DNA from: Candidatus Saccharimonadota bacterium
GTDB lineage: Archaea; Nanohalarchaeota; Nanosalinia; Nanosalinales; Nanosalinaceae
NCBI RefSeq assembly: GCF_047555085.1
Contig: NZ_CP180230.1
Location: 390,001 to 422,000, forward strand
Reading direction: 5' to 3'
DNA: 32,000 nucleotides
Of this stretch, positions 5,843-32,000 are shown piece after piece; position 1 is the stretch's first letter; each line of letters starts with the position of its first letter. A model generated the notes under the pieces. The model did no database searches, was not told the origin of the DNA, and worked only from the letters and a program-made list of their open reading frames with translations. Position numbers and translations under genes: made by a program.

Positions 5843-5881
5843 AAATTATTTATTACTCAAAGTTTTTCTTTAGAAAATTTT

Positions 5882-6196
5882 CTAGAGGCCTCGAGCCTCT
5901 CTTTCCTGACAGATCTTCTGAATCTCTTCATCGCTGTGAAGATTTCTATCCTTCAGGTTTTCTATCTTCTCCTGTTTCTCTTTAAACTCCTCCTCGACTT
6001 CGCTGTCTGTAAGAATTATCCTCGAGTAAGCAACTTCAGAAGTCACCTGTAAAGTTTCAAGAAACTGCTTCCAGTGGTTCGGTACAGGATACTTGACACG
6101 CTGCAGTATACGTGTAACTGCAAGTACGCCCAAGAGAGAATGCCGGTACACAAGGCCTCCTACACGATTAGCCTTTATCCGTTCACCAAGTTCCAA
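5882..6196 (-). CDS. hypothetical protein
   Basis: 104-aa ORF that fills the gap between srp54 and the phosphoesterase gene. No recognised motif. Confidence 0.35.
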   Translation of the reverse strand: MELGERIKANRVGGLVYRHSLLGVLAVTRILQRVKYPVPNHWKQFLETLQVTSEVAYSRIILTDSEVEEEFKEKQEKIENLKDRNLHSDEEIQKICQEREARGL

Positions 6197-6313
6197 TTTT
6201 TATCCACTGCTTGCACCAAGTATTTTTCTCCCCTGAATCCCCCGAAAACTTCCCTGTAACCAATACAGTACTTTCCCCTAAATAAAAAACGTTCGCAAAG
6301 AAACGAACAAACT

Positions 6314-6856
6314 ATGATAGCCATAATCTCGGACTCACACATCCCAAAAAGAGCGGAAAAGATACCAGAAGAATTCCACGAAAAACTTGAACAGGCCTCA
6401 AAGACAGTACACTGCGGAGACTTCGAAACACAGGAAAAATACGAAAAATTAAAGGAAAAATACGATGTAATCGGAGTAAAAGGCAACTGCGACTTCTTCG
6501 ACTTAGAGGCCTCACAGAAATTCTCAGTCAACGGAGTAAAATTCGGAGCATATCACGGCGCCGGAATCACGCCAAGAGGCCATCATCCGACACTCGTACA
6601 GACAGCAGAAACTTTAGACGTCGACGTACTTTTCCACGGGCACACACATCAACAGGAAATCGCCGAACACGAAGGAAAAATTTTACTGAATCCCGGCAGC
6701 TGTACAGGAGTAGGCGGAGGCTCCTCAAGAGAGAAAAATCCTTCAATGATGACAGTAAAGGCCTCTGAAAAAGGCCTGGAAGTGAAAATTTTCGAGAAAG
6801 ATCGTAAAAGTGGTGAAATAGAGGTTTCTGAGGAAACTGTTATCGATCTGAATTGA
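6314..6856 (+). CDS. metallophosphoesterase, MJ0936/YfcE family
   Basis: Ordered calcineurin-like motifs: ISDSH, HCGDF, KGNCD, YHGAG and GHTHQQ, in a 180-aa protein. Confidence 0.8.
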   Translation: MIAIISDSHIPKRAEKIPEEFHEKLEQASKTVHCGDFETQEKYEKLKEKYDVIGVKGNCDFFDLEASQKFSVNGVKFGAYHGAGITPRGHHPTLVQTAETLDVDVLFHGHTHQQEIAEHEGKILLNPGSCTGVGGGSSREKNPSMMTVKASEKGLEVKIFEKDRKSGEIEVSEETVIDLN

Positions 6857-6869: not shown

Positions 6870-6895
6870 ATAACGAAGTTGATTACAGGTGTTAG

Positions 6896-7606
6896 ATCAT
6901 CACTATTGTAGGACACTGGCCTCTAGATGAAAGTTCCGGGAATACGGCAGTCGATTATTCCGTGAACAGTAATGATGGGACAATCAACGATGGTGGTGAC
7001 TCGACAGTTCCAGGAGCCTCTGGAATACTTGGGGAAAAGGCCTACAGCTTTGATGGTTCCAATGACTACGTTGGTATTGGAGCGAAAGATAGTCTTGATT
7101 TCGGGAACGGCTCTATGTCGATAGTTGCATGGTTCAGAACTCCAAGCAACACTCAACAGGGCAAGATTGTGAATAGAGGCCAGTCAGGAGCTTTTCCAAG
7201 TTCTTCTGGCTATTCGTTGCGTTTCTACGATAAATTCGGAGTCGCATTTACTGACGGAACTAATAATTCAAATGTGTATGTTTCCAGTGCTGGCGACGTA
7301 ACTGAAAACGAATGGCATCTCGGCGTAGGAATTCTGGACAGGAACGCACAGCAGACAAGACTTTTCCTTGATTCCCAGCTTATAGGGACATCAGATGCAT
7401 CATCCCTCGGAAGCATTTCAAATCCGGATGCAACAGCGGACATAGCTGTACTGAATAGAGGAAGTTACGGCGACAAATCCGAATTCTTCAACGGAAAAAT
7501 CCAGGAAGCAAGACTGTACAATCACGCTCTCACGCCCCAGGAAGTCCAGTATCTTTACAGCGTCGGAAGTAGAGGCCTGCATGTCTCCAGTGAAAGAACT
7601 CTGTAA
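6896..7606 (+). CDS. LamG / concanavalin-A-like lectin domain protein (Laminin_G_3-like), start codon uncertain
   Basis: The C-terminal FNGKIQEARLYNHALTPQEVQYLY is the hallmark Laminin_G_3 ending. The conserved N-terminal GHWPLDESSGNTAVDYS is encoded at 6911-6961, upstream of the first canonical start (GTG 6962). The frame opens at 6896, after TAG at 6893-6895. Confidence 0.7.
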   Translation: MITIVGHWPLDESSGNTAVDYSVNSNDGTINDGGDSTVPGASGILGEKAYSFDGSNDYVGIGAKDSLDFGNGSMSIVAWFRTPSNTQQGKIVNRGQSGAFPSSSGYSLRFYDKFGVAFTDGTNNSNVYVSSAGDVTENEWHLGVGILDRNAQQTRLFLDSQLIGTSDASSLGSISNPDATADIAVLNRGSYGDKSEFFNGKIQEARLYNHALTPQEVQYLYSVGSRGLHVSSERTL

Positions 7607-7742
7607 AAAAGTTTCGTGAGATTATCTGTCAACAGTCAGTAAAGGCCTTGAAGTAAGAAAAATTCTCGGGAGAAAAATTGTATCAACTTGCTGACCAGTT
7701 TTAAAGAACAAAGCCACAATATAATCTTATAGAGGCCTATTC

Positions 7743-8432
7743 ATGGTTTTGAAAAGTTATTATCCACTCAATGAGAGTTCCGGGAGTACGGCATACGATC
7801 ATTCCGGAAATGAAAATCATGGTGCGATAAATGCAGGGGCGCTTGGACAGCCGAGTGTTGCAGGTTCTACAGGTTTGAAATGTACTTCATCTTTAGAGTA
7901 CGTGGCACTGCCCTGGTATTTTGATAGCGTCCGATCTCATTCTCTAACTGTTAATCTATGGTTTAAGAGGACCAGTACTACGACAAGCCAGAGGCGGAGG
8001 ATCGTTTCTCACGACGCCAGCGAATACTACAGAATGGCTGTAGATAATGGCGATATTGAATGGTACGGCAGGGAGAGCAGTTCAACCGGTCAGAGGATTT
8101 ACTCTCCAAACTCTGTCCCCGTAGACGAATGGGTGATGTGGACGGGTATAATCGACTCAGATAAAGGCGAGTTACGACTTTACAAAAACGGCGAACAGGT
8201 ATCCTCAACAAGTGGCTCCTATAGCACATGGGGCAGCGGCATCACACGTTACGGCTTTCTGATGGACGGCAGTGAAGCAACTAACTTTAACGGATCCAGA
8301 AACGGTGACTATGCACGTGGCGTACTCTCAGAAGTAAGATACTATTATCGCCCCCTTACTACTTCAGAAATACAGTATCTTTACAGCGTTTCTCAGAGAG
8401 GCCTCCAAACTACTTCAAAGAAGTCCTCATGA
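7743..8432 (+). CDS. LamG / concanavalin-A-like lectin domain protein, paralog of the preceding gene
   Basis: N-terminal YYPLNESSGSTAYDHSGNENHGAINAG and C-terminal GVLSEVRYYYRPLTTSEIQYLYSVSQRGL parallel the 6896 gene. ATG start. No signal peptide. Confidence 0.75.
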   Translation: MVLKSYYPLNESSGSTAYDHSGNENHGAINAGALGQPSVAGSTGLKCTSSLEYVALPWYFDSVRSHSLTVNLWFKRTSTTTSQRRRIVSHDASEYYRMAVDNGDIEWYGRESSSTGQRIYSPNSVPVDEWVMWTGIIDSDKGELRLYKNGEQVSSTSGSYSTWGSGITRYGFLMDGSEATNFNGSRNGDYARGVLSEVRYYYRPLTTSEIQYLYSVSQRGLQTTSKKSS

Positions 8433-14982: not shown

Positions 14983-17900
14983 ATGTGTAAATTTTTGGAA
15001 AAAGTGACTTTGATTTCGCTGTTTTTCGTTGTACTGGTTTCATCTTCAGTTGCAGTGTTTTCTATCGAAACCACAGATGGAGAGTTCGATTACAATGATG
15101 TTTCTCCTGATTCACAGTCTGTACAGGTTGTAAGGCTTGTTGACGGAACTGATGAGCCTGTTAATCAGTCCAGACTGGATAACAATACTGCGTTAAGCTT
15201 CAGGTACAGTTACAACGGAACTTTCTATGACATGGAGCATCTTACCGATGGTTTCTACTTCGCAGAGGTTCCGACTAATTCTACAGGACGGCATGTTTAC
15301 TATGAGCTTGTTGATAACTCTCCGACTACAGGAGGAACTGTTAACGCTTCGGAGGAGCTTGAAGCCGGTGATCTTGATGTAGATGTTAACAGCAGTTTCT
15401 CTGGAACTTTTGAGGCCGGTGAGGAAGTTGAACTTCGTGTTGAAGTGGAAAATCTTGGCCAGTACTACGCTGTTGACTCTGATGGATCTGGTGGAGTGAC
15501 TGATGGAGATGTCTTCGTCATAGATTCTGGTGGAGATGGAACTTTTTCCGCAGAGGAGGATGATCTTGTTGCAGGAAAGAGGCCTGATAACGCGGTTTCT
15601 CTGACGTCTGGTAATCCGTGGAACGGTGTTTCACATCCTGTTTCCCTGAATGATTCCACTTCCGGGAACAGCTGGGATGACAGTAATGATATAATTGTAG
15701 TTGACAGGCACAGCGGCGGAACAGTATCGGTAGAGGCCGACGAAGTAATAAACTCTGGAGATGATTCGGCTGTGGATACTGTTGCGGGACAGGAATTGAG
15801 GCCTATGGATGAGATAAGGGACTCTGTGTATTTTGTTTCCGACAGCGGAGATATCAGTCAGGGCGATGAAGTTGTATATGATAACGATACTGATGGGATC
15901 TATACTTCAAGGCCTGATGAAGTTATAGTCGGCAACGAGCCTGTTGAAGGGAATCAGATCACTTCCTCGAACTCTGCTCCGAGTCAGATGGAGTTGAGTT
16001 CCTATGATTCGAACAACGGGAATGACTGGGCTGCTGGAGAAGATCTTATCGCAAGAGATTTCGACGATGATGGCCAGTACACTGCCAGAGCTGATGATAT
16101 TATGGCAGGAGATGAGCCTCCTGAGGGAGCTAATCTTCAGACAGGATCTGTGGAGGCCTGGGAGGACGGTAATACTGCTGTCCCTAATCCGGGGGATGTA
16201 GAGGCCTACGATAATACTTCCGGTGATGACTGGAATCCTTCTGTTGATGCTATCTGGCTTGAGACAAGCAGTGATAATAATGGTTTTACGCAGGGAGAGG
16301 ATGTTGCTCTGGCTGGAAATCCGACTGATGGTCTGGTGGCAACTGAGCCGGTGAATCAGTTTAATCAGTGGACTTCTGTTTCCGCTTACCGTGGAAGCGA
16401 TGGCGATCAGTTTGACATCGATCAGGACGGTATTATCCGTGATTACAGAGGCGGAGGTACTTACTCTGAGCAGTCTGATACCATAGTCACAGGCTCCATA
16501 CCTCAGAATTTCCAGGAGGGAACGTCTTATACTACTACACAGGGATTTGATGATGACTGGACTCTTGATGTTATCAATCCTTTCGAGCAGGGAGCATGGG
16601 ACTCAAATCAGGATACTATCCTTTTCGACTTCAATGATGGAGGTACTTACTCCGAGAGATCGGATCAGATCATCAATCACGGTGGTTCGAACGATGCCAG
16701 CGGCGGAGAGGAGCTTCACAGGCTGAACTCTGTCTCGCAGCAGGATATCATGTGGGCAGATCTCAACGGGAACGGCAGATACGATGCCGGAGATGAAATA
16801 TTCAGAGATCTTGATGGAGATGGACAGTACACCAACCAGTCAGACATACATCTTGCAGGTACTTCTCCAAGCACGGCAGGAGCTGGAACAGGCCTTCAGA
16901 CATCGAATCCATGGGGAGAAGATGATATGCCTGTACTTTTCCGTAATATGAATTCTGATGGAGAAACATGGAATGGATCACAAGACAGCATAATCCATGA
17001 CTTGGATTCCGACGGCGCTTTCACTTCTCAACAGGATACTATCGTTGAGGGAGAGGCCTCTGAAGTTTCAGCAGGCCAGCAGCTGATTTCTACGGATAGA
17101 GATGACTTTGCAAGTCCTGATGTGACTGTATACATAACGAATGGAAACTTTTCCACGGGAATATTTGAACTGGGCAGGGAGCCTGACGGCGACTTTGTTA
17201 ACACGATCGAGATTCCGGAGTACTACGGTGCCAACATGGTGACCCAGTTCAAGGCGGAAACTCCTAGAGGAGGCCTAGTTGGATCAGAGTCACGTGTTAT
17301 AGAGACAAGGAAACGTGGCATAGGATTTGAGGCCCAGTCCGATCTTGATTTCCGTGCAAGGAGGGCAGGAATCTATACTGAGAATATCACTCTTGAGAAT
17401 ATACTTGATACGGAAAACGAGATACATGTGGAGGCCTCTGAAAGCCTTGAAGATATAGTGGAGTTCGAGGATGAGACTGTAACTATAGATCCTGGAGCTG
17501 AAGAAAATGTCTCAGTTGACTTCAATGTTACGCCTGCAGGGGATTACAGCGGAGATATAATTTTCACAGAGAACTCTACAGGAGAGACTGATGACACAGA
17601 AGTGGATATTGAAGGCCCGACGTGCATCGAAAGAACTGAGACTTTCTGTTCATCACAGTCAGGCTGGATGAATGTTACTATGGAGGAGAGAGGTAATACT
17701 ACCAAAGAGTTTACTCTTGACAGCATCTGGAGAGAAGATGAGGCCGTTGCAGTCCAGATAGCTGTGGAGGGGGATATCCGCCAGTATCTTTCTCTTTCAC
17801 ACACAGATATAGAGCTTGAAGATACACAGACAGTGACTGTAGAGTACAGTGCACAGGATCCTGGAGTATACACCGGGAATATAGAAATATCTTCTGGAGG

Positions 17901-18666
17901 AGAATCACTGTCGATACCGGTAGGCCTCAATTCAAGTGTCAAGCAGCTTGAGACAGGTATGGACGCAAGTCCTGTCGAATTTGACTTCGGTGCAGTTCCT
18001 GAAGGAAACGATGTTTCCGACAGAATAACTTTGGAGAACACCGGAACACTTGAACTCAGCGACTTCAACATTTCATCTCAGGACTACAGCCTCAACGCTG
18101 ACTCGATAGAAAGTATAGCGCCGGGAGAATCAACTCAGACAGACTTCACAATCGAGGAGCCGCAGGATCAGCAGGGCCAGTTCACAATAGAGGCCTCCAG
18201 TGAGCAACAGAATGTATCACAGATATTCACTGTTTCCATGAGTCTTGTAACTCCGGTAGAAGACATGAAACAGGAGATAAGAGATAGAGTAAGCGATCTG
18301 AGAAGAAGAGCTAACTCCACACAGGTGCAGAACAATCTTGTCGAAGTTGAATCAGATATCAGCAGTATACAGACTTCATGGGATAGAGGGGATTACAGTA
18401 CGGCTCAGGAAACTTATCAGGCCTCTATCTCAGAGCTTAACAGCATAGAGACTACGGTACAGGCCAATAATCAGGATACTGGTGGAAGTGGGCCTTCACA
18501 GCCAACTGATCCATCAGGCTCTGATTCATCTGAATCCGGTGGAGCAGGATTCCTGATATTTGCGTTTGTGCTGTTGCTTCTTCTGGGAGCAGGATTTGTA
18601 GTGTACACAAGTTACTATCCTGAGGAAGGAGATCCACTGTACGAGGTTCTTGGTGATAAAGAATGA
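14983..18666 (+). CDS. large anchored cell-surface protein: signal peptide, about 9 Ca-binding FG-GAP-like repeats, 3 Ig-like domains, coiled-coil stalk, S/T/P/G linker, C-terminal TM anchor
   Basis: 1227 aa. N-terminal hydrophobic VTLISLFFVVLVSSSVAVFS. Repeated DxDGxYT...D.I.AG motifs. Ig-like segments such as FDFGAVPEGNDVSDRITLENTGTLEL. C-terminal GGSGPSQPTDPSGSDSSESGGAGFLIFAFVLLLLLGAGFVVY. Confidence 0.85.
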   Translation: MCKFLEKVTLISLFFVVLVSSSVAVFSIETTDGEFDYNDVSPDSQSVQVVRLVDGTDEPVNQSRLDNNTALSFRYSYNGTFYDMEHLTDGFYFAEVPTNSTGRHVYYELVDNSPTTGGTVNASEELEAGDLDVDVNSSFSGTFEAGEEVELRVEVENLGQYYAVDSDGSGGVTDGDVFVIDSGGDGTFSAEEDDLVAGKRPDNAVSLTSGNPWNGVSHPVSLNDSTSGNSWDDSNDIIVVDRHSGGTVSVEADEVINSGDDSAVDTVAGQELRPMDEIRDSVYFVSDSGDISQGDEVVYDNDTDGIYTSRPDEVIVGNEPVEGNQITSSNSAPSQMELSSYDSNNGNDWAAGEDLIARDFDDDGQYTARADDIMAGDEPPEGANLQTGSVEAWEDGNTAVPNPGDVEAYDNTSGDDWNPSVDAIWLETSSDNNGFTQGEDVALAGNPTDGLVATEPVNQFNQWTSVSAYRGSDGDQFDIDQDGIIRDYRGGGTYSEQSDTIVTGSIPQNFQEGTSYTTTQGFDDDWTLDVINPFEQGAWDSNQDTILFDFNDGGTYSERSDQIINHGGSNDASGGEELHRLNSVSQQDIMWADLNGNGRYDAGDEIFRDLDGDGQYTNQSDIHLAGTSPSTAGAGTGLQTSNPWGEDDMPVLFRNMNSDGETWNGSQDSIIHDLDSDGAFTSQQDTIVEGEASEVSAGQQLISTDRDDFASPDVTVYITNGNFSTGIFELGREPDGDFVNTIEIPEYYGANMVTQFKAETPRGGLVGSESRVIETRKRGIGFEAQSDLDFRARRAGIYTENITLENILDTENEIHVEASESLEDIVEFEDETVTIDPGAEENVSVDFNVTPAGDYSGDIIFTENSTGETDDTEVDIEGPTCIERTETFCSSQSGWMNVTMEERGNTTKEFTLDSIWREDEAVAVQIAVEGDIRQYLSLSHTDIELEDTQTVTVEYSAQDPGVYTGNIEISSGGESLSIPVGLNSSVKQLETGMDASPVEFDFGAVPEGNDVSDRITLENTGTLELSDFNISSQDYSLNADSIESIAPGESTQTDFTIEEPQDQQGQFTIEASSEQQNVSQIFTVSMSLVTPVEDMKQEIRDRVSDLRRRANSTQVQNNLVEVESDISSIQTSWDRGDYSTAQETYQASISELNSIETTVQANNQDTGGSGPSQPTDPSGSDSSESGGAGFLIFAFVLLLLLGAGFVVYTSYYPEEGDPLYEVLGDKE
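15475..17057 (+). repeat. about nine degenerate coding repeats of about 60-70 aa (FG-GAP / calcium-loop-like) inside the surface protein
   Basis: Recurrent motifs: DSGGDGTFSAEEDDLVAG, DNDTDGIYTSRPDEVIVGNEP, DFDDDGQYTARADDIMAGDEP, YRGGGTYSEQSDTIVTGS, FNDGGTYSERSDQIINHG, DLDGDGQYTNQSDIHLAGTSP and DLDSDGAFTSQQDTIVEGE. Confidence 0.6.
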
Positions 18667-21720: not shown

Positions 21721-23448
21721 ATGAAAGGCCTCAAATTTCTTCCTATTTTAATTTCTGTATTTCTACTTGTTGGAGTCTCTTCAGCTAATCACATGGACAG
21801 AGATGTTTCTGTGATTATAGAAAATAGTAATGGTGATACGCTTAATGCGGAGGATACATCGAGGTTTGTTATAGATTATGGGCAGAATTCTCCTCAGCCT
21901 TTCAGGGTTGCTATACTTTGTGAGGGGTCTGACTGTCCTTATGGTCCTGCGGACTCAGGTGTTTTGAGAGCACCTCTATTTCTGGAACTATGTGGAAAGA
22001 CTATAGATGCTACAAATAATTACTATGGCTCTGATACGGACTTCTGGACTGATAAACAGAGAGTTCCAACAGGATCTACTTTCGGGCCTAATGCTTTGAA
22101 GTGTACTCCAGGGATCAAAGATGCTGATATTGTAGATCAAGATGGTCATGTTGTGAAGAATATTAATACTGATTTCATAGTTGATTACAGGACCAGTGGT
22201 CCTCAGCTGGGTGTATCTATAGATATAGAGAATCTGGGGAATAAGATTAGCCGCTTTAAGATAGAGAACACCGGAGATGGAACCAGTCCTGGGTATGTTA
22301 GAGTAGGCCAGTCTGGGTTATGTGTAAGAGACTGTGGGGATTTCGAACCAGCTAGTACCAATACTATAATGTCGTATGAGAACACAGGTACTGGGTACGT
22401 TAACAGTGTCAATGAATTTATCAGTACAGATTACGGTAACTGTGGTTTTGGAGCAACACTGTGTCAGGTCGCTAATCAGGATTTTGGAGAGCTAGAAAGT
22501 TCGTGTGGCGGCGACTGTCCTATAGGGCATGTTGATCAGGGAAGTAATGCAGATTACATTCCAAGGGGGGAAGTAATAGCTGGGCAGGCTTTTTCTACTG
22601 ATGAGGAGTGGCCTGTAGGCAACATAAATAATCCTTATTTTCATGTGTGTGATAGTTCTCTAGAAGGCTACAAGGAAATGGATGGGAAGACGGTGTACAG
22701 TCCCGGAAGTAATTTTGGGACGAATTACTTCGAATGCCGGGATTATCAGTGGATTCCAAGGCAGCAATGCGACCCTGGCTTTAAATGGGCGGAAGTCGAC
22801 GGTGAATGGATGTGTGATGAGAAAGAACCTTCAAGAATAAACGTCGATTTTCTGAATATACAGAATCTTCCATACAGCGAAGTTGAAAGCGGTTATACTA
22901 CTGGCTTCAGAATACTAAGTAGTGAAGCTGAAAAATTTGAGAACGTGTATGATGCTGAGTTACAGGAAGTTAATGCGGAGTGCTGGATGGGACAGAATGA
23001 TCAGAGGCCTTCTGACAGCAGTAAGAAAGGAGTGGTAACTGTAGATGTTGATGAATTCCGAACAGCTTTCGGTTTAAGCAACATATGGGTTTTAACAGAT
23101 ATTCCAAGTCGAACAGGTGTGGATAATGAAACTTATTCATGTGTGTGGGGGTTCGCAGGTTACGGCCAACATAACCAGTACATCTATCAAGGAGTAAATG
23201 ACTATTTTTTGGAAGCTATGGATGAAGAGGCTATATCCTATTTTGATTACTCTCAGATTCAGGGAATATACCAGAGAAATCAGGATGCCTACAGTAATTC
23301 GTTAAGCTGGGATTACTATGTATCTCTCGATGAGAGGGGTTACACAGCCTTTGGAGGACCTTCACCTTTCAATTCCCCTAATGAGGAGTATCCTTACTGT
23401 CCGCCAGACAATCCGCTGTATCCGGATGCAGATATACAGTGCGACTGA
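21721..23448 (+). CDS. secreted Cys-rich acidic protein, unknown family
   Basis: 575 aa. Signal peptide MKGLKFLPILISVFLLVGVSSANH. Cysteines are scattered through the protein, many in close pairs (CEGSDC, CVRDC, CGGDC, CDPGFKWAEVDGEWMC, and the terminal YCPPDN...IQCD). No TM anchor. Confidence 0.8.
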   Translation: MKGLKFLPILISVFLLVGVSSANHMDRDVSVIIENSNGDTLNAEDTSRFVIDYGQNSPQPFRVAILCEGSDCPYGPADSGVLRAPLFLELCGKTIDATNNYYGSDTDFWTDKQRVPTGSTFGPNALKCTPGIKDADIVDQDGHVVKNINTDFIVDYRTSGPQLGVSIDIENLGNKISRFKIENTGDGTSPGYVRVGQSGLCVRDCGDFEPASTNTIMSYENTGTGYVNSVNEFISTDYGNCGFGATLCQVANQDFGELESSCGGDCPIGHVDQGSNADYIPRGEVIAGQAFSTDEEWPVGNINNPYFHVCDSSLEGYKEMDGKTVYSPGSNFGTNYFECRDYQWIPRQQCDPGFKWAEVDGEWMCDEKEPSRINVDFLNIQNLPYSEVESGYTTGFRILSSEAEKFENVYDAELQEVNAECWMGQNDQRPSDSSKKGVVTVDVDEFRTAFGLSNIWVLTDIPSRTGVDNETYSCVWGFAGYGQHNQYIYQGVNDYFLEAMDEEAISYFDYSQIQGIYQRNQDAYSNSLSWDYYVSLDERGYTAFGGPSPFNSPNEEYPYCPPDNPLYPDADIQCD

Positions 23449-23451
23449 ACT

Positions 23452-24765
23452 TTATTCTGAAGGCCTATTTCCAGGCATATGATAGAATTCTGGCTCTTCA
23501 AGCGTTCCATCAATTTTCAGAGGCTGGTCGTACCCACGTATTGGATCGCCTCTAAAGTCTTCTCCAAGCTCGTTCTCAAATATCTGGTAGACTGCTCTTC
23601 CAAGCTGTCTGTAATTCCTCAGATCCTCTTCGTCCATACCATCTGCTAACTCATCTGCAGACTCCACAAAACTGTCTGTAAGAGTAACATCATACCCTTC
23701 ATTACTGTTAGCCATGAACTGGCTCAAGTTGTTATGTCCGTCATCAATTAGATCAAGTGCAGCACCGACAAAAGCTCTGGCAGTATCACCATCATCTAAG
23801 ACACCATTTGACTCCATTTCAAGGCCTTTATTCAGCTCAAGGCCTGTGACATAATGTTCTGGGAACTGTGTGTCGCCATTACGCATAGTAATTGTTTCTT
23901 TGTCCAAAGATGTTGTGTAGGCACTGTCCTCAGGATCTCTGATTGCATGGAAAAAATACTTCTGAGGACTTGCATCTGTGTTTTCAACATATTTCGTCTC
24001 TAACTCGCCGTCCTGAGAATAAGTTAATAGGCTGACTCCGTGTGTAATACCTCTTATTCCCGCTTCAGATCCGTCAGGCCTCTCACGAATAGATCCTTCA
24101 ACTATTCCTTCAATGGCGGATGGCTGAGGTTCTGAGGCTCTAACTGTAAACATGTTAAACTCTCCGAAGTCAAGACCTATTTCCTGAGCAACGTACTCTG
24201 CAACGTTCGGGACCACCATGTTCTTACCTCCACTGGTGTTTATGCCTGTTGCCGTATCAACGGCATGGACAAGAGATCTGGCAAATCTTACAGAGTCTTC
24301 TACATCTTCCTGCAAAAGGCCTCTAACTCTATCGCTTTCTACAGATCCAGGATTTGTGTATATTTCCTGTGTTCTGTTAACAATGTCGTCTACAGTTCCT
24401 TCAACTTCTTGATGCTGGGGCAACCTCTCCAGTTCTCCTGATAGAAATCCACGGGCAACTTCAACATCGTCTCTCCTCATTTCATCCCACTCTTCCTCGC
24501 TAACTCCATTTTCAATTACTTGGAACTCCGAGGCCTCTTCAGGGTCAACATTAGAATCAGGGATATCTCCAAGAGCTCCGGTCTTGTCCTGAAAAGCGTA
24601 CTGGAACTCCTGATCAATAGGATCGACATCTTTGGATTCGCTGCCTTCAAGAAGGCCAGCACATCCAGATAAAGAGGTTGCGCCTGCAGCGCCTACAGCG
24701 GCTTTCATGAAGTCGCGGCGGTTTGTTCCCAGATCAAACACCTTGTTGTTATTATAGAGTAACAA
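23452..24765 (-). CDS. Tat-exported lipoprotein, unknown function
   Basis: The N-terminus NRRDFMKAAVGAAGATSLSGCAG combines a twin-arginine motif with a lipobox Cys. The ORF track starts at TTG 24765. GTG 24741 (VFDLGTNRRDF) lies about 30 nt downstream of a TATA-like box and may be the real, leaderless start. Confidence 0.75.
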   Translation of the reverse strand: MLLYNNNKVFDLGTNRRDFMKAAVGAAGATSLSGCAGLLEGSESKDVDPIDQEFQYAFQDKTGALGDIPDSNVDPEEASEFQVIENGVSEEEWDEMRRDDVEVARGFLSGELERLPQHQEVEGTVDDIVNRTQEIYTNPGSVESDRVRGLLQEDVEDSVRFARSLVHAVDTATGINTSGGKNMVVPNVAEYVAQEIGLDFGEFNMFTVRASEPQPSAIEGIVEGSIRERPDGSEAGIRGITHGVSLLTYSQDGELETKYVENTDASPQKYFFHAIRDPEDSAYTTSLDKETITMRNGDTQFPEHYVTGLELNKGLEMESNGVLDDGDTARAFVGAALDLIDDGHNNLSQFMANSNEGYDVTLTDSFVESADELADGMDEEDLRNYRQLGRAVYQIFENELGEDFRGDPIRGYDQPLKIDGTLEEPEFYHMPGNRPSE

Positions 24766-24767
24766 GT

Positions 24768-24777
24768 TTATATGTGT
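24768..24777 (-). promoter_or_regulatory. TATA-like box (ACATATAAAC on the minus strand) for the Tat lipoprotein gene
   Basis: It lies in the 63-nt divergent spacer, roughly 30 nt upstream of the candidate GTG start at 24741. Confidence 0.3.
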
Positions 24778-24804
24778 TTTGGTTTTCTTCTGTAACGGTC
24801 GGTC

Positions 24805-24819
24805 GATTTTTATTTACAG
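24805..24819 (+). promoter_or_regulatory. TATA-like promoter element GATTTTTATTTACAG
   Basis: Identical 15-mer to 6855-6869. Its centre is about 26 nt upstream of ATG 24838, consistent with a leaderless mRNA starting at the second Met (MYRHLAP). Confidence 0.4.
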
Positions 24820-24828
24820 CAAAGAAAC

Positions 24829-27087
24829 ATGTTATTCATGTATAGGCATCTGGCTCCTGTTGCTTTAATCGCAGGCCTACTTCTTTTCTCAGTATCGGTT
24901 CAGGCCTATGGAGGAGATGGAACAGTTGATGTTTCCGGAAAGCCAGCGCCTACTACGGGTGTATGTAACGATGATCAAGACAACGATGACGATAATCTTA
25001 TAGATAGGACTGACACAGGATGTACGAAAGTGTACCAGTATGACAGATCCGAGTATGATATGAGGGATTCGGATCTAACATATCAACTCTACGGTGGAGA
25101 AGGCCCTGATACTACGGATCTTTCTGTATCTTATCCAGGATTTGTTGAGAGAAGTTTAGGCCTTAGAATAGAGGACTGTGATCCTGAAAGCGGTTACTGT
25201 TCGTACAATGAGGTTGTAGGCAACGATCCTTTGGTTGTGGAGCGGTGGATAGATAGCTTTGGATATCCACAATGGGCGGGAGGAGAACTGAAGAGTACCG
25301 GAGTTCAGAAGTATGATGCTTCTATTACTGATTATGTAGATCGTGAGGATGCTGAAAGAGATATGTCGGGTAGAGCAGCTGTTAATAATCCTTTACAGGG
25401 AGCCATATTCAGCAATCCGGAAGTCGAGACATGTGGTAATGGGGACAGAAACATGAATGAGGGGAAGAACGTAGGATGTCCTGAAGACTGGGGCTTCCTC
25501 GATGATCTAACTGTTGATGGAGAGACAAGGACTGCACAGCAATCCTCTAATGATATCACGGATGAGCTAAAAGACTCGTTTACTGTGGATGTCGGTATAA
25601 ATCATGGTGCTCCGGTTGAGCAGTCTGATCCTCCAACTTATGAGATGGATCTTCTGGGGCTTGAAGCTGGAGGAGAAGATACTATAAATATACAGTCTCC
25701 AGAGGGAAGGCCTAGAACTGAAGAGCTCTACGAACACGATGGTATTAGTGCAGCACCTGATTTCTTCGCCGATGGAAGGGAGATAAAAGTCGTTTACCCG
25801 TATGCTTCAGAGACGACGTATACCCAGGTCTCTGACGTTGATCTAGTGGAGTCAAGTATAACGCATTATACTCAGACCGGCTTCCGTGTTCCAACTTCAT
25901 GTGATTTCGGAGGTACTGATGGAACCAATGTTAGCTGCCAGTCAACCGGTAACTCTTACTGTTTGACCAGTGATGTAGTGACTAACAGTGTAAGAAATTA
26001 TTCGATTGCAAGCGATACCAGAGAAGTCCAGATTCCTACAAAGGCATACCGTACAGAGGCAACGGATGATCCTCTAAACAATCCCGGATATGTTGAAGAT
26101 ATTACTGACAGAGGCTTTACTGTAAATGTTGAACGGGATATAGAAACAGGTTGGGGAACGCACCCTGCAAATAACTGTCCTACAACTACCGATGAAATGG
26201 AGTGTGATTTCGAAGAAGGAGATTCCGATCCATGCTCACCTTCAGATTATGAATACATATGGACAGACAGCGCTCCGGATTATGATGGAGACGGTGAAGG
26301 AGGAGATTCTTACACTAGCACAGTAACACATGATACAGATATAGTATATGAAGACATTGAGTTCCGTGAAAAAGCAGTGTTCAGTACTGTTTACGAGGAC
26401 AATCAAAATCTGCCTTCGGAGGCCTCTTCCAAGGAAGCTTTATTCAATGGCCATTATAATCTTGACAATATAGTTTATAATGGACCTTACTATTCTCCTG
26501 AAACCAATTATCTAAACGATGACTTTGCTAACAGTCCTGCGGTCTCTTCTTCAAGTTTTGAGGTAACTGTCCAGGATGGAACATTCCATTCCAAGCGTGA
26601 CTATTACGGAGTGTTTGATGTAGATGGAACAAATGGATTCGGCGACTCTTTCATTGCTGTAAAGGAAGGAAGCAAAACTCAGAGCATTCCGGCATTTAAC
26701 AAAGAGACAGCTATCGTAAGTCCTTCAGGAGAAAAAGTCGGGAACGATGAAGGGTTCATGGAGGCCCAAGAGACTAATTTTGTGGATGTAAGCGAGTATT
26801 CTCCTCCAGGCCAGTGTCCTGACGGGATAATCTTCTGCGTTGCAGCTGTCGATCTATCTGTGAAAGAATGGAGCGACTGGGATAGCCCAACACAGCCAGA
26901 ATCCGAGTTTGAAACAATAGATACTATACATGTAAACGAGTCATTTGGCGCTTGCCGCAAGTATCAGGAGCTAATAGGCGGCGCCCACCAATCAATATTA
27001 AGATGCCAGTATGATTACGGGGAAGACTTCCCTAACGAGCCCGTTCCATTCCACAAGCCAAATGTAGTTGGAGGTGATGGCTCATAA
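24829..27087 (+). CDS. secreted acidic Cys-containing protein, unknown family
   Basis: 752 aa. Signal peptide LAPVALIAGLLLFSVSVQAYGG. An N-terminal Cys-bounded acidic loop, CNDDQDNDDDNLIDRTDTGC. No TM anchor. The start could be 24829 or 24838. Confidence 0.8.
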   Translation: MLFMYRHLAPVALIAGLLLFSVSVQAYGGDGTVDVSGKPAPTTGVCNDDQDNDDDNLIDRTDTGCTKVYQYDRSEYDMRDSDLTYQLYGGEGPDTTDLSVSYPGFVERSLGLRIEDCDPESGYCSYNEVVGNDPLVVERWIDSFGYPQWAGGELKSTGVQKYDASITDYVDREDAERDMSGRAAVNNPLQGAIFSNPEVETCGNGDRNMNEGKNVGCPEDWGFLDDLTVDGETRTAQQSSNDITDELKDSFTVDVGINHGAPVEQSDPPTYEMDLLGLEAGGEDTINIQSPEGRPRTEELYEHDGISAAPDFFADGREIKVVYPYASETTYTQVSDVDLVESSITHYTQTGFRVPTSCDFGGTDGTNVSCQSTGNSYCLTSDVVTNSVRNYSIASDTREVQIPTKAYRTEATDDPLNNPGYVEDITDRGFTVNVERDIETGWGTHPANNCPTTTDEMECDFEEGDSDPCSPSDYEYIWTDSAPDYDGDGEGGDSYTSTVTHDTDIVYEDIEFREKAVFSTVYEDNQNLPSEASSKEALFNGHYNLDNIVYNGPYYSPETNYLNDDFANSPAVSSSSFEVTVQDGTFHSKRDYYGVFDVDGTNGFGDSFIAVKEGSKTQSIPAFNKETAIVSPSGEKVGNDEGFMEAQETNFVDVSEYSPPGQCPDGIIFCVAAVDLSVKEWSDWDSPTQPESEFETIDTIHVNESFGACRKYQELIGGAHQSILRCQYDYGEDFPNEPVPFHKPNVVGGDGS

Positions 27088-30000
27088 ACTTCGATAAAGG
27101 CCTCAAAATCCTGATTCTGGCTTTAGTATTCATTACGGCAGTCCAGTTCGGTGCTTCCCAAGGAGCAGTCTTAGACACCAGAGATGAATACTGGATTTAC
27201 TTTGAAGGCCCCGAGGCTAATGAGCAGCTTGCAATGGATTATCCTAACGTTCTAGAAGGCCGGACAAGTTATGAGGATTCGTGCTACTTCAACAACACGG
27301 TTTATAGAGAGGGAGAAGTCAAAGATATAGGGCAAAAGATTGTAACTAATGATGGAGGTGCTGTCAGCTTTGAAGCAGGAGGCTGGCATCCGGATAAAGA
27401 AGTATGTCTGAACATCGGAGGCCAAGGAGATGATGTTGCATCCGGACAGAAAAGAGAAAGTGATAACTACCGTGGCGGAGACAAAGGAGGAGAATGGTGG
27501 GATCTTGATCAATGGGAAGTCACACAGTACCTGAGAAATAACGCAGGATCAGTCCACTCAGATGCATGGAGAGATTACTGGGTTGAACAGCCTGATTCAG
27601 CTTCCTCTCAGGACTCAACAGGTATAATAGAGGGAAGCGGTATAGCCATGGAGGATGACTGTTCAACTTTCCTTGAGTGTGAAGATATCCGCAGTAATAC
27701 AGGATTCGATGATCCATTTGCAGCTAACTTTACTGAAGGAAGTCTGGACGACGACAATAATATTGATACAGATACTCCTTTTTCGATAAGAGGCCTCAAT
27801 AACTATCATAATCGTGTACAGGCAGGAAACTCGACAGGACATCCTGACGGAAGTCAGGGATCAGGAAACACCCAGGATCAGGAAACACCTATAGAAGGCC
27901 TTCAGGATGAACCTCTTCAGAACAGTCATATTGATCCTGAAGACGACGAATGGGCTATGACTCCTACACTGGGTTACGTGATTGCAAATGATGGTACTCC
28001 GCTGAGGCCTGGAAAATGCTACGGTGCTGAAAGAGTTCAGGGAGTAGATAAGAACAAGAGACAGGCCACTTACGCCAACTCTTTTGCTAATGTTTCTCAA
28101 GAGTACGATGGAGGCCTCAGCAGTCAGAGCAGATTTAATTCTCTGGGACTGGCATTTCCTGAAGACTATTCTGAGGATGGTAACTGGATCAATCCAGATA
28201 ATGATTATCGGTCTGCTACGCTTGGAGGATTCTCATGTGATCTTACAGGTAAGGACTGGGGATTCGGTTTCTCAGAGGTTAACCAGTTGAACACCGATTT
28301 TGTCTGTCGTGAAGGCGACTGTGATAAAGAGGGTGATCCATACAATCCTGATGATAGTGGTTTCAATCCAGAGAATCCTCACAGTGTTTCTGCCGAGGCG
28401 GAGGATCTGAACTTTGATTACGCTAATGATCCTACTAGTCATGAACAGGATAATCTTGAGCAGTATCCTGATGCTTGTGGGGATGATCAGAATGAATATC
28501 TGATTCGTGAACACGCTGCTACTTACGGTGGAGAGAGCAATCCAAATCTTGAAGGAAGATCTGATTACTATGCTTGCGCTGACAGGCCTACGGACTGTGT
28601 ATTCGATGGAGAGGTCTACAGTCAGGGAGAGCTTGTGGATGTGCAGGGAGAAGGAGGGAGGGAGGCAGGAGTCAACTCAATAGATCAGGAAATCTGTGTT
28701 GATCTTGATTCCTCAATCCCTGGAGGAGAATGGGTAGATCCGGACAATGAGTCCATTAGAGAGTTCCTTATAGGAGATGGGACTAGAGATAACCCGGAGT
28801 ACTATGTCCGTGATGAAGAACCGATAGAAGGCCAGCCAGGACGCGTGGTCTGGCATGATGGGGATGATACTCCGGGAGCAAGAGAAGCAAGAATTTCTCC
28901 TTACAACCCTGCCGAGTTTGAAGTAGGATATGCATTGGAGGATGATTGTGATCCAGCACTCAGAGACAGTATAAACAGCGGATGTGATGATTCAGGCCTC
29001 TACGAGGAACTGATTCAAGGCCAGTTCGTATACTCGCCATTCAAGGAAGGTATGTACGCTGATGATGCAAACGTTTTCGAAGGCTTTGCAGTAAGAACAT
29101 ACGTTGGGGATGGGACAAGTGATGGAACAAGCGCTGAACATGGGGCCTCAAATGGTCAGGATGAGGAGAATACGGATGGCGTAGTCTTCGATTCTTCTGA
29201 TGAGTGGCCTACTGCTAATCTTAATGATTCAAGTATTGATAGACTGGAGGATACATGGGCAATCTCTAATTATTCATACCATCCTGTAGGCCCTACAGGC
29301 CATATATGGGAGAATGGATCATGCTATGGAAGATCGCCTCTTGATGCTGGAAACAGTCAAGGAGAGTACATAATAACTAAGAATGAGAAGGTGATGGGTA
29401 ACTCCTTCGCAAAAGCAGTTGACTTCAATGATGACGGTACTAAGGAAGGAGTCTGGGTTGATCCTGATATAACGAACAAGACAACTTTGACAGGAGGAAC
29501 GAGCTGTGCGATCAACGGAAACGACTGGGGAATAGGTTTCAATACAGGATCAGGTCTAACGGTTACCGATAACAATACTAATCCTAGATATGAGCCAGAG
29601 GATCTTCACGCTGCTACAGGAAACATTACTTTCGATATAAATTCCGATCCTGATGGCATAGGATCAGGTAGAAATCTCCAGCAGTACCCTGAGGCCTGTG
29701 GGGATGATCAGAACGAGTATCTGATCCGTGAACACATGGATAGTAGAGATGACACGGAGCAGAAGCCAAATCTTGGCCGTAAAAACATCTATGTCTGTGC
29801 TGATCGTATATCTGACTGCGCTTTCCACGGAGAAGTATACAGCGAGGGCCAGGTAGTGGATGTTCAGTCATACGGTAGAGAGGAACGTGGTTCTAACTCT
29901 GTAGATGAGGAAGTCTGCGTTGATGTTGATGAGACTGTTCCTGGAGGAGAATGGATTGATGTGGATAACGAATCTATCAATCAGTTGCTCAAAGGGGAGG

Positions 30001-32000
30001 AAGACGACGGAGAAACTTACACTGAGGACGATCCTGATACATACAACGGACTTGTAAGAGCTAATTCAAGCTATGATGGCGATGGCGTTAAATGGTTCAC
30101 AGATAGCTACGGGCCTGCTGCTGAGGTAGAGTTAACTCCTTACAATCCACTGGATTATTCTGATGGATATGCACTGGAGGATGACTGTGGGCCTGATGTA
30201 GAGTTCTGTGAGGACTCAGGCCTTGCAAATACTCATATGGAGGGGAGGGCGGTGTATTCATACTTTGAAGAAGGTAGGCCTGAAGATGACAGAATCAATT
30301 CTCTTGTTGAGGATGGTAGCGAGGATGAAATAGTTGCTGGAGAGGTGTTCACAGGAGTTTCTGTCAGGACATGGGTGGGATATGCCAACGGTACAGCTAG
30401 TTACGAGCATGGTGCCACAAACAATCAGGATGAGGAGAATACGGAAAATACTGTGTTTGATTCATCTGATAACTGGCCTACAGAGAACTTGAATGATTCA
30501 AGTATTGATAGACTGGAGGATACATGGGCAATCGCAAATACCACTGAGAAGGCTGTAGGGCCTACAGGAAGGCCTTATCCGGAAGGAAAGTGTTATGGTC
30601 GTAGCCCGCTAAGTGTCGATGATTACCAGGTAACTAAGAATGAGAAGGTGATGGGTAACTCCTTCGCAAAAGCCGTTGATATCAATGGAGATGGCACTTC
30701 CAGGAAGAAAGGTGTCTGGGTGAATCCTGATTCCACAGTTGACTCTGCTCTTACAGGAAATCTTTCCTGTGATCTAAACGTGACTGACTGGGGATTCGGA
30801 TATAATGCAAGTACTGATGCCGATTTACAGGTTATCCGTGGAGATGCAAGAGAGTTCGGATACGACAGGGATGATCCTCATGTTGTAGTCGGAGACATAC
30901 CTTTCGATATCAACTCGGATCCTAACGGCGTAGGAGAAGACGAAAATCTTCAGCAATACCCTAACGCATGTGGCGATGACAGAAACGAGTACCTTATCCG
31001 CGAACACCGTGATACCGCCGACAGCACCGAACAGATGCCAGATCTTACAGAGGACGATATATACGGCTGTACAGACAGGATCAGTGACTGTGTATTCAAT
31101 GGTTCCATATACAGCGAGGGCCAGGTAGTAGACATACAGTCATACGGTAGAGAGGAACGTGGAACCAACTCAATAGATGAAGAAGTCTGTGTAGATGTAG
31201 ATGAAAGTATTCCTGGAGGAGAATGGTACGATGTGGATAACGAATCACTGAACCAGTATCTGAAAGGGGAACAAGGCCTCTATACAGAGGATAATCCTGA
31301 TACGTACACCGGAGTGGTAAGGGAAAACGCAAGTTACAGCGGCGATGGCGTAAAGTGGTTCACAGATAGTTATGGGCCTGCAGAAGAAGTAGAAATCTCG
31401 CCGTTCAATCCTTTGAACTATTCTGATGGATACGCTTTGGAGGATGACTGTGGGCCGTCAATCGATTACTGTGAAGACTCTGGAGTGGAGGATACTCATT
31501 TCGAGCCTGATGCTGTGTACTCGTTCTTTGAGGAAGGGCATATAGGCGATGACAGGAGGCCTAGTCCGGAAGATGATACAAAGCCGGATCCGAACAGCGA
31601 CTACTTTGAAGCTATCTCTGTAAGAATGTACGTTGGATTTGCTAACGGTACTGCGTCAGCTGAGCACGGTGCTACAAACGGTCAGGATAAGGAGAACGTG
31701 CCAGATAATCTTGATTTCAACGTTACGAAGTGGGGTAAGACTGTATCGCTAAATGATTCTACGATTGATCCGCTTGAAGACACATGGGCTCTTTCAAACA
31801 GGACTTCTGCGATCGTTGGACCTACAGGAAAGGTCTACAGTGAAGGAAAGTGCTACGGACAGAACGTACTTGATCAACCCGACTACCAGCTTACAAAGGC
31901 TCAGAAAGCTGTAGGTAACTCGTACGCCATGACTGTTGACGTAAATGGAGACGGTACATCAAAGGAGAAAGGTGTATGGGTGAATCCGGATTCAACCGTG
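27078..32000 (+). CDS. giant secreted Cys-rich repeat protein, partial (runs off the right edge), no canonical start codon ahead of its signal peptide
   Basis: Frame 3 is open from the codon after TGA 27075-27077 to the window end (more than 1640 codons); I spot-translated about 0.5 kb at the 5' end and one full repeat unit, and the repeat anchors stay in frame. KGLKILILALVFITAVQFGASQG is encoded at 27096-27164. The first in-frame ATG is at 27234. It is absent from the ORF track only because it has no stop in the window. Confidence 0.8.
27945..32000 (+). repeat. tandem coding repeats of about 1.26-1.30 kb (about 420 aa): three full units and the start of a fourth
   Basis: Phase anchors EDTWA/DEWAM at about 27945, 29245, 30515 and 31775. 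YP.ACGDD.NEYLIREH at 28464, 29684 and 30957. C.F.G.VYS.GQVVD.Q...EVCVD.D...PGGEW.D.DNES recurs in each unit. About 8 conserved Cys per unit. A half unit is also present at 27280-27540. Confidence 0.85.

Follow-up and report, generated by a model that had tools for sequence, protein, structure and literature searches.

What do the four genes for exported proteins at the right end of a 32,000-nucleotide (nt) stretch of nanohaloarchaeal DNA (contig NZ_CP180230.1, positions 390,001 to 422,000; the whole stretch is called the window below) build, and do they belong together at all? Nanohaloarchaeota are obligate ectosymbionts of haloarchaea, and attention has so far rested on the SPEARE giants and on LamG and PKD proteins, which are strain-specific or missing in some genomes; to our knowledge, Candidatus (Ca.) Nanohalobium possesses no SPEARE. 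A first-pass annotation, made from the letters of the window alone, had proposed that the block from position 21721 onward is a dedicated, uncharacterised surface module, possibly for host interaction. The core of that proposal stands, given a conserved gene neighbourhood, the lack of known families and the adhesion-type domain fusions of homologues, while its framing by an island, by acidity and by a gene overlap proved wrong. Our own reading, to which we give a probability of roughly 0.55, is that the cluster encodes a Nanohaloarchaeota-specific, vertically inherited surface complex (an anchored adhesin or envelope structure), which would most likely contact the haloarchaeal host or its glycans. 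The block consists of the following features (aa, amino acids; TM, transmembrane; Tat, twin-arginine translocation):

21721..23448, plus strand: 575-aa protein with a Sec signal and 18 Cys (translation, composition; no further TM segment)
23452..24741, minus strand: predicted Tat-exported lipoprotein, 429 aa from GTG 24741; the frame is open to TTG 24765 (437 aa)
24742..24828, no strand: AT-rich spacer of 87 bp between the divergent lipoprotein and 752-aa genes (sequence read directly)
24829..27087, plus strand: 752-aa protein with a Sec signal, the "head", 16 Cys (translation; blastp to single-chain giants)
27077..27164, plus strand: junction and 5' end of the giant gene, with an out-of-frame ATG at 27077 and no canonical in-frame start
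27165..28352, plus strand: module R1 of the giant protein, a divergent copy about 25% identical to R2-R4, 8 Cys
28353..29567, plus strand: module R2 of the giant protein, 405 aa, 8 Cys
29568..30842, plus strand: module R3 of the giant protein, 425 aa, 8 Cys, 64% identical to R4 and 51% to R2
30843..32000, plus strand: module R4 of the giant protein, incomplete at the window end

Each of the three plus-strand proteins carries one N-terminal hydrophobic, signal-like segment as its sole TM-like stretch, and neither the 575-aa nor the 752-aa protein has an anchor. These N-termini, together with the RRDFMK...LSGC signature of the lipoprotein, agree with the Sec and Tat/lipobox signals originally assigned. 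As for cysteine, the same annotation had spoken of four acidic Cys-rich proteins plus a Tat lipoprotein in one place and of three Cys-rich proteins in another; the lipoprotein is there, and three is the correct count. Cysteines number 18 (3.1%) in the 575-aa protein, 16 (2.1%) in the 752-aa protein and 31 (1.9%) in the visible part of the giant, whereas almost every other protein of the window stays at or below 1.1%, with Pus10 as the exception. The even Cys counts and the presence of exactly 8 Cys per full module are consistent with an exposed, disulfide-bonded structure. The proteins are also very acidic, as claimed, but this is no property of the block: Asp and Glu make up 15-25% and the pI is 4-5 in nearly every window protein. 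The window-wide acidity is the signature of a salt-in halophile, proteome-wide and not specific to these genes.

For all four proteins, searches in Pfam, NCBIfam and the PDB and, for the lipoprotein, with Foldseek led to no well-understood family. The Pfam and NCBIfam scans gave nothing at or above the curated cut-offs and only sub-threshold noise (TRAM_2, VCIP135_N, acid_disulf_rpt, PRK08537), so that the earlier statement that no enzymatic motif is recognisable holds for catalytic families in both databases. In the Pfam scan VWA, C-type lectin and GEVED domains were absent from the block proteins, and no Ig, LamG or other domain rose above threshold in 1,640 aa of the giant. When the PDB sequences were searched with profiles of the giant module and of the 575 and lipoprotein families, nothing meaningful came up.

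The evidence that carries our reading begins with the giant protein. Its frame opens at 27078 and is stop-free for 1,640 codons up to the window end, which agrees with the repeat protein of more than 1640 aa noted before. We found that it consists of four modules of about 420 aa, 25-64% mutually identical, with acidic motifs such as PGGEWxDxDNES. Giant orthologues in relatives reach 4,033 and 3,993 aa, and every named homologue comes from Nanohaloarchaea. N-glycosylation sequons are enriched in the giant (27 observed vs 14.8 expected) and depleted in the 575-aa (1 vs 5.1 expected) and 752-aa (3 vs 6.2 expected) proteins. The window stops inside the gene, and the C-terminus was deduced from L007, a second contig of the closest relative in the genome collection, which holds the 3' end of the orthologue. 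This orthologue ends in ...EEVPGIGSFQLLVLMLAAFMVYMRLVVRKDI and shows a PGF-CTERM-like layout, VPGIGSFQLLVLMLAAFMVYMRLVVRKDI (L007 3400-3549), made of a Pro-Gly motif, a TM helix and a short polar/basic tail. Its C-terminal 1,154 aa contain no Pfam match and no ATPase, and the protein stops 8 residues past the TM helix. The homologues P0020-P0024 likewise have VPG[I/L]x and then a hydrophobic TM helix at their C-termini. These C-termini resemble those of PGF-CTERM/archaeosortase-sorted surface glycoproteins of haloarchaea, and an exosortase is annotated in a cultured relative; they differ in having PGI or PGL in place of PGF and in leaving the NCBIfam models unmatched, and the corresponding end of the window giant lies beyond the window. 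The recurrent VPG[I/L]x plus TM arrangement on nanohaloarchaeal giants may be an unrecognised archaeosortase-type sorting signal.

In turn, the 752-aa protein proved to be related to the same giants. By blastp it matches P0020 with 27% identity over 718 aa (E 4e-22), and also P0025, P0022, P0021, P0026, P0019, P0008, P0014, P0018 and P0010. The stretch it matches in these single-chain giants of other nanohaloarchaea is their N-terminal 600-800 aa, while further along, in the middle and at the C-terminal end, they contain the module of the window giant. Given this N-terminal alignment, the 752-aa and giant genes are two halves of what is a single gene in other lineages, and the window lineage has split the gene and amplified the module. 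The single-chain proteins (P0008, P0010, P0013 and P0016 of Ca. Nanosalina and Nanohaloarchaea H01/H12, named "GEVED domain-containing" or hypothetical) are true homologues, with modules 39-50% identical and with 575-like and Tat-lipoprotein genes upstream of them too. They differ in being one polypeptide of 1,750-2,500 aa with about 2.3 modules, inserted GEVED and VWA domains, a C-terminal C-type lectin and no C-terminal TM segment. The window lineage, by contrast, has a split gene, no such inserts in the visible part, four module copies within the window and orthologues of about 4,000 aa. Adhesion-type domains occur in homologues of the block proteins (GEVED, VWA and C-type lectin in P0008, P0009 and P0014; CARDB in one; PKD with a Zn-protease in P0004 of the 575 family).

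The 752 family shares an invariant Cys-bracketed acidic loop, C46-C65, with the pattern C-x4-D-x-D-x-D-x3-D-x2-D-x-G-C (columns C46, D51, D53, D55, D59, D62, G64 and C65 of alignment A4). This loop and the acidic module motifs recall thrombospondin type-3-like and acidic double-disulfide repeats (NF033662), but residues 44-67 of the 752-aa protein score 10.4 bits (E 0.42) against a cut-off of 41 bits. Cation binding by the loop is a conjecture drawn from this weak resemblance.

The lipoprotein, 429 aa long and beginning MFDLGTNRRDFMKAAVGAAGATSLSGC, carries NRRDFMKAAVGAAGATSLSGC, in which a twin-arginine motif (RRDFMK) is followed by a hydrophobic region and a lipobox (LSGC) whose cysteine is the only one of the protein. 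A start at GTG 24741 appears more likely than one at TTG 24765, because homologues begin just before the RR and because this in-frame GTG has a TATA-like CATATAAAC about 29 nt upstream on the minus strand. A second TATA-like run, GATTTTTATTTACAGC, precedes ATG 24829, so that both starts have one some 25-30 nt upstream, and the spacer 24742..24828 is probably a back-to-back promoter pair. The lipoprotein family counts 39 representatives among 1.84 billion clustered proteins, all with RRxF and L-A-G-C; both motifs are kept in 16 aligned homologues and in the positional analogues at distant loci, and 4 homologues match the Pfam TAT_signal model. The protein thus has the signals of a Tat-exported lipoprotein, and its export and lipid modification are predicted accordingly. 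Polar residues D80, E170, H222, E241, Y263 and K293 are near-invariant in the family. The AlphaFold (AF2) model is confident (pLDDT 83, pTM 0.85), and Foldseek found no match for it in the PDB and BFVD (best E 0.2, TM scores of 0.15 or less); judged by this model, the fold is not recognisable within these two collections.

Members of the lipoprotein family were also found outside the phylum. The chromosomes of the haloarchaea Haloplanus natans and H. rubicundus encode homologues (P0069 and P0071) that fall in the cluster represented by P0031, which is 36% identical to the window lipoprotein. In H. rubicundus CP031150.1 (L029 10001-11281) the gene is solitary and stands two genes from a phage-type integrase. 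The Haloplanus subgroup nests among other family members in a rough neighbour-joining tree, most tips of which bear no taxon label, and a later lipoprotein profile search returned 10 proteins, the Haloplanus copies not among them. Such nesting suggests exchange of the lipoprotein gene between nanohaloarchaea and the haloarchaeal class of their hosts. A different kind of change is seen in L014, a distant nanohaloarchaeal metagenome-assembled genome (MAG), in which the Tat+lipobox gene is tandemly duplicated (5279-6592 and 6890-8212, minus strand), the mature N-termini of the copies being near-identical.

The 575 family is very narrow, with 6 homologues among 5.8 billion proteins, across which 14 Cys are invariant. 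One of them, P0004, carries an additional PKD domain and a reprolysin-like Zn-protease domain with an HExxH motif. The family itself has no Pfam, NCBIfam or PDB match, and the larger 575-like proteins at distant loci have no Pfam match either. Looking up the exact 575-aa sequence gave no hit, and a contig-profile scan with the family found no relative, probably owing to the masking of the source region and to the narrowness of the family.

Gene order ties these proteins together. Three metagenomic relatives share the succession KsgA, CTP synthase, methylase, a 1,229-aa Ig-like protein, two small genes, SpoU and DUF1512, followed by the block, i.e., the 575-aa protein, the Tat lipoprotein on the minus strand, the 752 homologue (772-779 aa) and the giant (4,033 or 3,993 aa). 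We observed the order 575, Tat (minus), 752, giant in L001-L003 and the order 575-like, Tat (minus), single-chain giant in L008, L009 and L034-L037; the 575-like, Tat (minus), giant order is detected by tblastn in all of these loci. Positional analogues with the same signals are present in L014 (with its duplicated lipoprotein) and in the complete genome L026, and in every one of the cases named the cluster adjoins DUF1512. In distant nanohaloarchaea DUF1512 is followed by a Cys-rich protein (plus), a single-Cys Tat+lipobox protein (minus) and a giant, and then by HerA, Rad50, Mre11 and ProRS. All 23 of the 23 confirmed loci in a collection of species-representative genomes belong to nanohaloarchaeal MAGs or genomes. 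Over a span of module identity from 85% to about 25% the genes retain their order and orientation, while nearby changes at the same loci include an inserted 164-aa gene in L003 and the duplication in L014. The neighbourhood is conserved in relatives, and the proposal of the first-pass annotation thus withstands a refutation test that it had itself set. The block is part of a phylum-wide housekeeping synteny and no island, and it is best read as vertically inherited.

Within this fixed frame the proteins of the block change far more rapidly than the housekeeping proteins encoded next to them. Relative to L003, the 575-aa protein is 39%, the lipoprotein 40%, the 752-aa protein 29% and the giant modules 48-59% identical, against 80% for CTP synthase and 82% for DUF1512. 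The 752 gene is the fastest-diverging of the block, falling from 51% identity with L001 to 29% with L003.

The cultured relative Ca. Nanohalococcus occultus adds transcription data. Its SVXNc gene table lists KsgA, CTP synthase, a methylase, three hypothetical genes, TrmJ and DUF1512, then SVXNc_0415-0418, with ProRS three genes beyond SVXNc_0418 (PMC10266531). The four genes SVXNc_0415-0418 are annotated as hypothetical and have values of 4136, 961, 2420 and 4033 reads per kilobase per million mapped reads (RPKM), at or above those of tRNA synthetases (PMC10266531). By position they would be the counterparts of the block genes. The same table lists DsbB, protein-disulfide isomerases and the exosortase mentioned above (PMC10266531), which fit extracytoplasmic disulfide formation and C-terminal sorting.

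Sec exports unfolded proteins and Tat already folded ones. The routing of the Cys-rich proteins through Sec and of the otherwise Cys-free lipoprotein through Tat gives a consistent export logic, from which the following picture may be drawn. The three Cys-rich proteins would leave the cell unfolded via Sec and fold outside with disulfides, the 8 Cys of a giant module perhaps forming about 4. The giant would be a long modular fibre, probably of about 9-10 modules and probably N-glycosylated, fixed in the membrane by VPG[I/L] and a TM segment at its C-terminus, like those of its orthologue. The 752-aa protein, homologous to the N-terminal part of the same ancestral polypeptide, would act as its detached, membrane-distal head, presumably in association with the fibre, and the 575-aa protein would be a secreted partner. 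The lipoprotein would fold in the cytoplasm, exit via Tat and serve at the membrane as a putative assembly or anchoring factor. Together they would give the ectosymbiont an adhesive or envelope structure, for which attachment to the host is the most likely role: homologues carry fused adhesion domains, the proteins diverge fast, and the organisms live as ectosymbionts.

The relation of head and giant was further examined at their junction (27077..27164). The first-pass annotation had taken a 10-nt overlap of the two genes as a sign of co-transcription, but this is only the 752 stop codon (27085-27087) overlapping the opening of the giant frame, which follows the TGA at 27075-27077, and no overlap of start and stop exists. 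Descent of both from one ancestral gene is the stronger link. The ATG at 27077 lies in a different frame and reads MAHKLR and then a stop. In the giant frame no ATG, GTG or TTG occurs before codon 53 (27234), and the frame encodes a signal-peptide-like stretch, ...DKGLKILILALVFITAVQFGASQG, whose core KILILALVFITAVQFGASQG is followed by AVLDT. In relatives the giant gene starts canonically with its own signal peptide, at an ATG in L006 (MKPRTVSAVILTL...), at a TTG in L003 (MKLKHLTPFIVL...) and at a TTG in L001. Compared with L001, the window retains the ancestral MAHKL codons, followed by 19 extra nt (CGATAAAGGCCTCAAAATC, which includes an AGGCCT) that shift the ATG out of frame. Three causes come into question: an assembly error of one base, a frameshift of recent origin, or initiation at a non-canonical codon (ATA 27084, CTG 27111 or ATT 27114). 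A programmed frameshift fusing the 752 and giant proteins was considered and rejected, because a slippery sequence is lacking and because in relatives the two genes are separate and each encodes a signal peptide of its own.

Several observations weigh against our reading. Localisation, binding and interaction of the four proteins are predictions from sequence, and in Pfam the window proteins carry no recognisable adhesion domain. The membrane anchor is seen only in the orthologue and in homologues, the C-terminus of the giant lying beyond the window; NCBIfam sorting-signal models do not match the L007 C-terminus, and Nanosalina-type homologues (P0008-P0019) end in ...WFSAGNFSxGGVxP with no TM segment. 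The AF2 model of module R3, built on a 20-row alignment, is of low confidence (pLDDT 51). With no canonical in-frame start, the giant gene might be impaired in this strain. L006 lacks the Tat gene between its 575-like and 752-like genes, and Haloplanus chromosomes carry the lipoprotein gene on its own, which means that its product can function in the absence of the giant. Finally, the orthology of SVXNc_0415-0418 is deduced from gene order only. As regards module R3, the Foldseek matches of its model (VWF, TNFR and EGF-like; E > 1) were set aside as noise, the model being too uncertain.

A serious alternative, although in our estimate a rather unlikely one, is that the four genes encode a general envelope scaffold, i.e., housekeeping cell-wall or S-layer-like proteins of every nanohaloarchaeon with no role in host recognition. 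Such a scaffold would agree with the phylum-wide presence at a fixed position among housekeeping genes, with the strong transcription of the syntenic SVXNc genes and with the lack of lectin and VWA domains in the window's own proteins. Yet the block diverges much faster than its neighbours, the 752-aa head in particular, and lectin, VWA and GEVED domains come and go between lineages and the module copy number changes, a pattern more typical of interaction surfaces than of an unvarying scaffold. Moreover, it is other genes that the paper on the cultured relatives annotates as S-layer proteins (PMC10266531).

The solitary occurrence of the lipoprotein gene in Haloplanus and its absence from this position in L006 also favour the view that the genes are neighbours by descent only and act independently, with giant and head as a single unit to which the two other exported proteins, the 575-aa protein and the lipoprotein, are unrelated. 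In line with this, hhalign found no relationship between the 575 family and the giant module (probability 0.1). We consider this improbable, since order and orientation persist over the whole range from 85% to about 25% module identity while nearby genes change, as in L003 and L014.

Even less credible to us are extracellular enzymes or nutrient scavenging, e.g., proteolytic or polysaccharide-binding machinery that feeds the symbiont. The near-invariant polar residues of the lipoprotein family could be taken in this sense, as could the reprolysin-like Zn-protease with HExxH fused to one 575-family homologue; that domain, however, is an add-on in a single homologue, the lipoprotein model is unlike known enzyme folds, and none of the four window proteins matches a catalytic family. 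A horizontally acquired genomic island is effectively excluded, for despite a lower density of the hexamer AGGCCT in the block its GC content equals that of the flank, neither tRNAs nor Rfam-family RNAs were found in the window, the window proteins scanned against Pfam yielded no integrase or transposase domain, and relatives at all sampled distances have the block in synteny with the same flanks.

The earlier claim of a sharp contrast with the left flank is likewise contradicted by a GC content of 0.43-0.47 within the block against 0.40-0.49 to its left, with no shift at 21721, and by the place of the block in a conserved synteny with housekeeping genes on both sides throughout the phylum. 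Scans of the region for Rfam families, tRNAs and tandem repeats gave nothing relevant. The left flank is archaeal housekeeping (prefoldin, FtsY, SRP54, Pus10, DUF655, KsgA, CTP synthase, SpoU methylase and DUF1512), and archaeal marker domains are present among the window proteins.

Set against known systems, the surface complex that we favour has among its closest counterparts the SPEARE-type giants of Nanohaloarchaeota (Ca. Nanohaloarchaeum antarcticus; SVXNc_0300 and BNXNv_0298), which combine tandem Ig-like, LamG and beta-propeller domains with a TM segment and a cytoplasmic VirB4/TraG-like ATPase (PMC6642349, PMC10266531). Both are giant, acidic, Sec-exported and membrane-anchored (here by deduction) proteins of the same phylum for which host contact is proposed (PMC6642349, PMC10266531). 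In contrast to SPEARE, the giant described here is made of a Cys-rich module of about 420 aa with no Pfam match and has no Ig or LamG domain in the visible 1,640 aa; the C-terminus of its L007 orthologue lacks a VirB4/TraG-like ATPase; head and stalk are encoded by separate genes; and the locus is another one, SVXNc 0415-0418 (by gene order only) against 0300 for SPEARE. The cluster is distinct from SPEARE and akin to the giant surface proteins of DPANN symbionts, and it is built from unannotated families. A literature search, which included Nanohaloarchaeota with GEVED or cysteine-rich as terms, found no description of it.

In the study of how Nanohaloarchaeota attach to and select their hosts, the cluster is a concrete candidate, open to testing, for a core structure of attachment or of the envelope. 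What sets it apart is the same locus throughout the phylum, a well-transcribed syntenic counterpart in a cultured species, fast evolution and unannotated families. The head/stalk split and the varying number of modules offer natural variants that can be compared with host range, and the lipoprotein, having a confident model and no structural neighbour, is a good target for structure determination. A bolder version, which we put forward tentatively and would not ourselves favour, is that the four genes encode a new phylum-wide surface apparatus, comprising an anchored fibre of a new Cys-rich module, a detachable and fast-evolving head setting host specificity, a secreted partner and a Tat lipoprotein of new fold, that it is the primary host-attachment device instead of or alongside SPEARE, and that its lipoprotein gene has been exchanged with Haloplanus.

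Two further features of the window deserve mention. The palindrome AGGCCT occurs in 112 copies in the 32-kb window, compared with about 8 expected from length alone. Its lower density in the block, noted before, is real: 2.5 per kb to the right of 21721 against 4.0 per kb to the left. The drop is small beside the overall excess; chance would give about 0.25 per kb, far less than either value. The excess is lineage-specific, being found also in L001 (55 in 21.7 kb), L010 (23 in 7.5 kb) and L026 (31 in 20.5 kb), with L002 listed too; among syntenic relatives there are 0 copies in L003 and L004 and 3 in L005, and the excess is absent from most other nanohaloarchaeal loci. A literature search on Nanohaloarchaeota and AGGCCT returned nothing relevant.

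The second feature concerns other proteins encoded to the left of the block. At 14983-18666 (plus strand) the window encodes a 1,227-aa Sec protein in which HYDIN/VesB-like Ig and choice-of-anchor-D-like domains are combined with enriched sequons and a C-terminal TM helix. Relatives keep this protein in synteny, with 72% identity in L001, 45% in L003 and L005 and 26% in L021 (partial), and its positional counterpart SVXNc_0410 has an RPKM of 3110 (PMC10266531). This protein may belong to the same extended surface neighbourhood. Adjacent genes at 6962-7606 and 7743-8432 (plus strand) encode proteins of 214 aa and 229 aa, each with one Laminin_G_3 (ConA-like lectin) domain and no obvious signal peptide, and lie just downstream of FtsY and SRP54.

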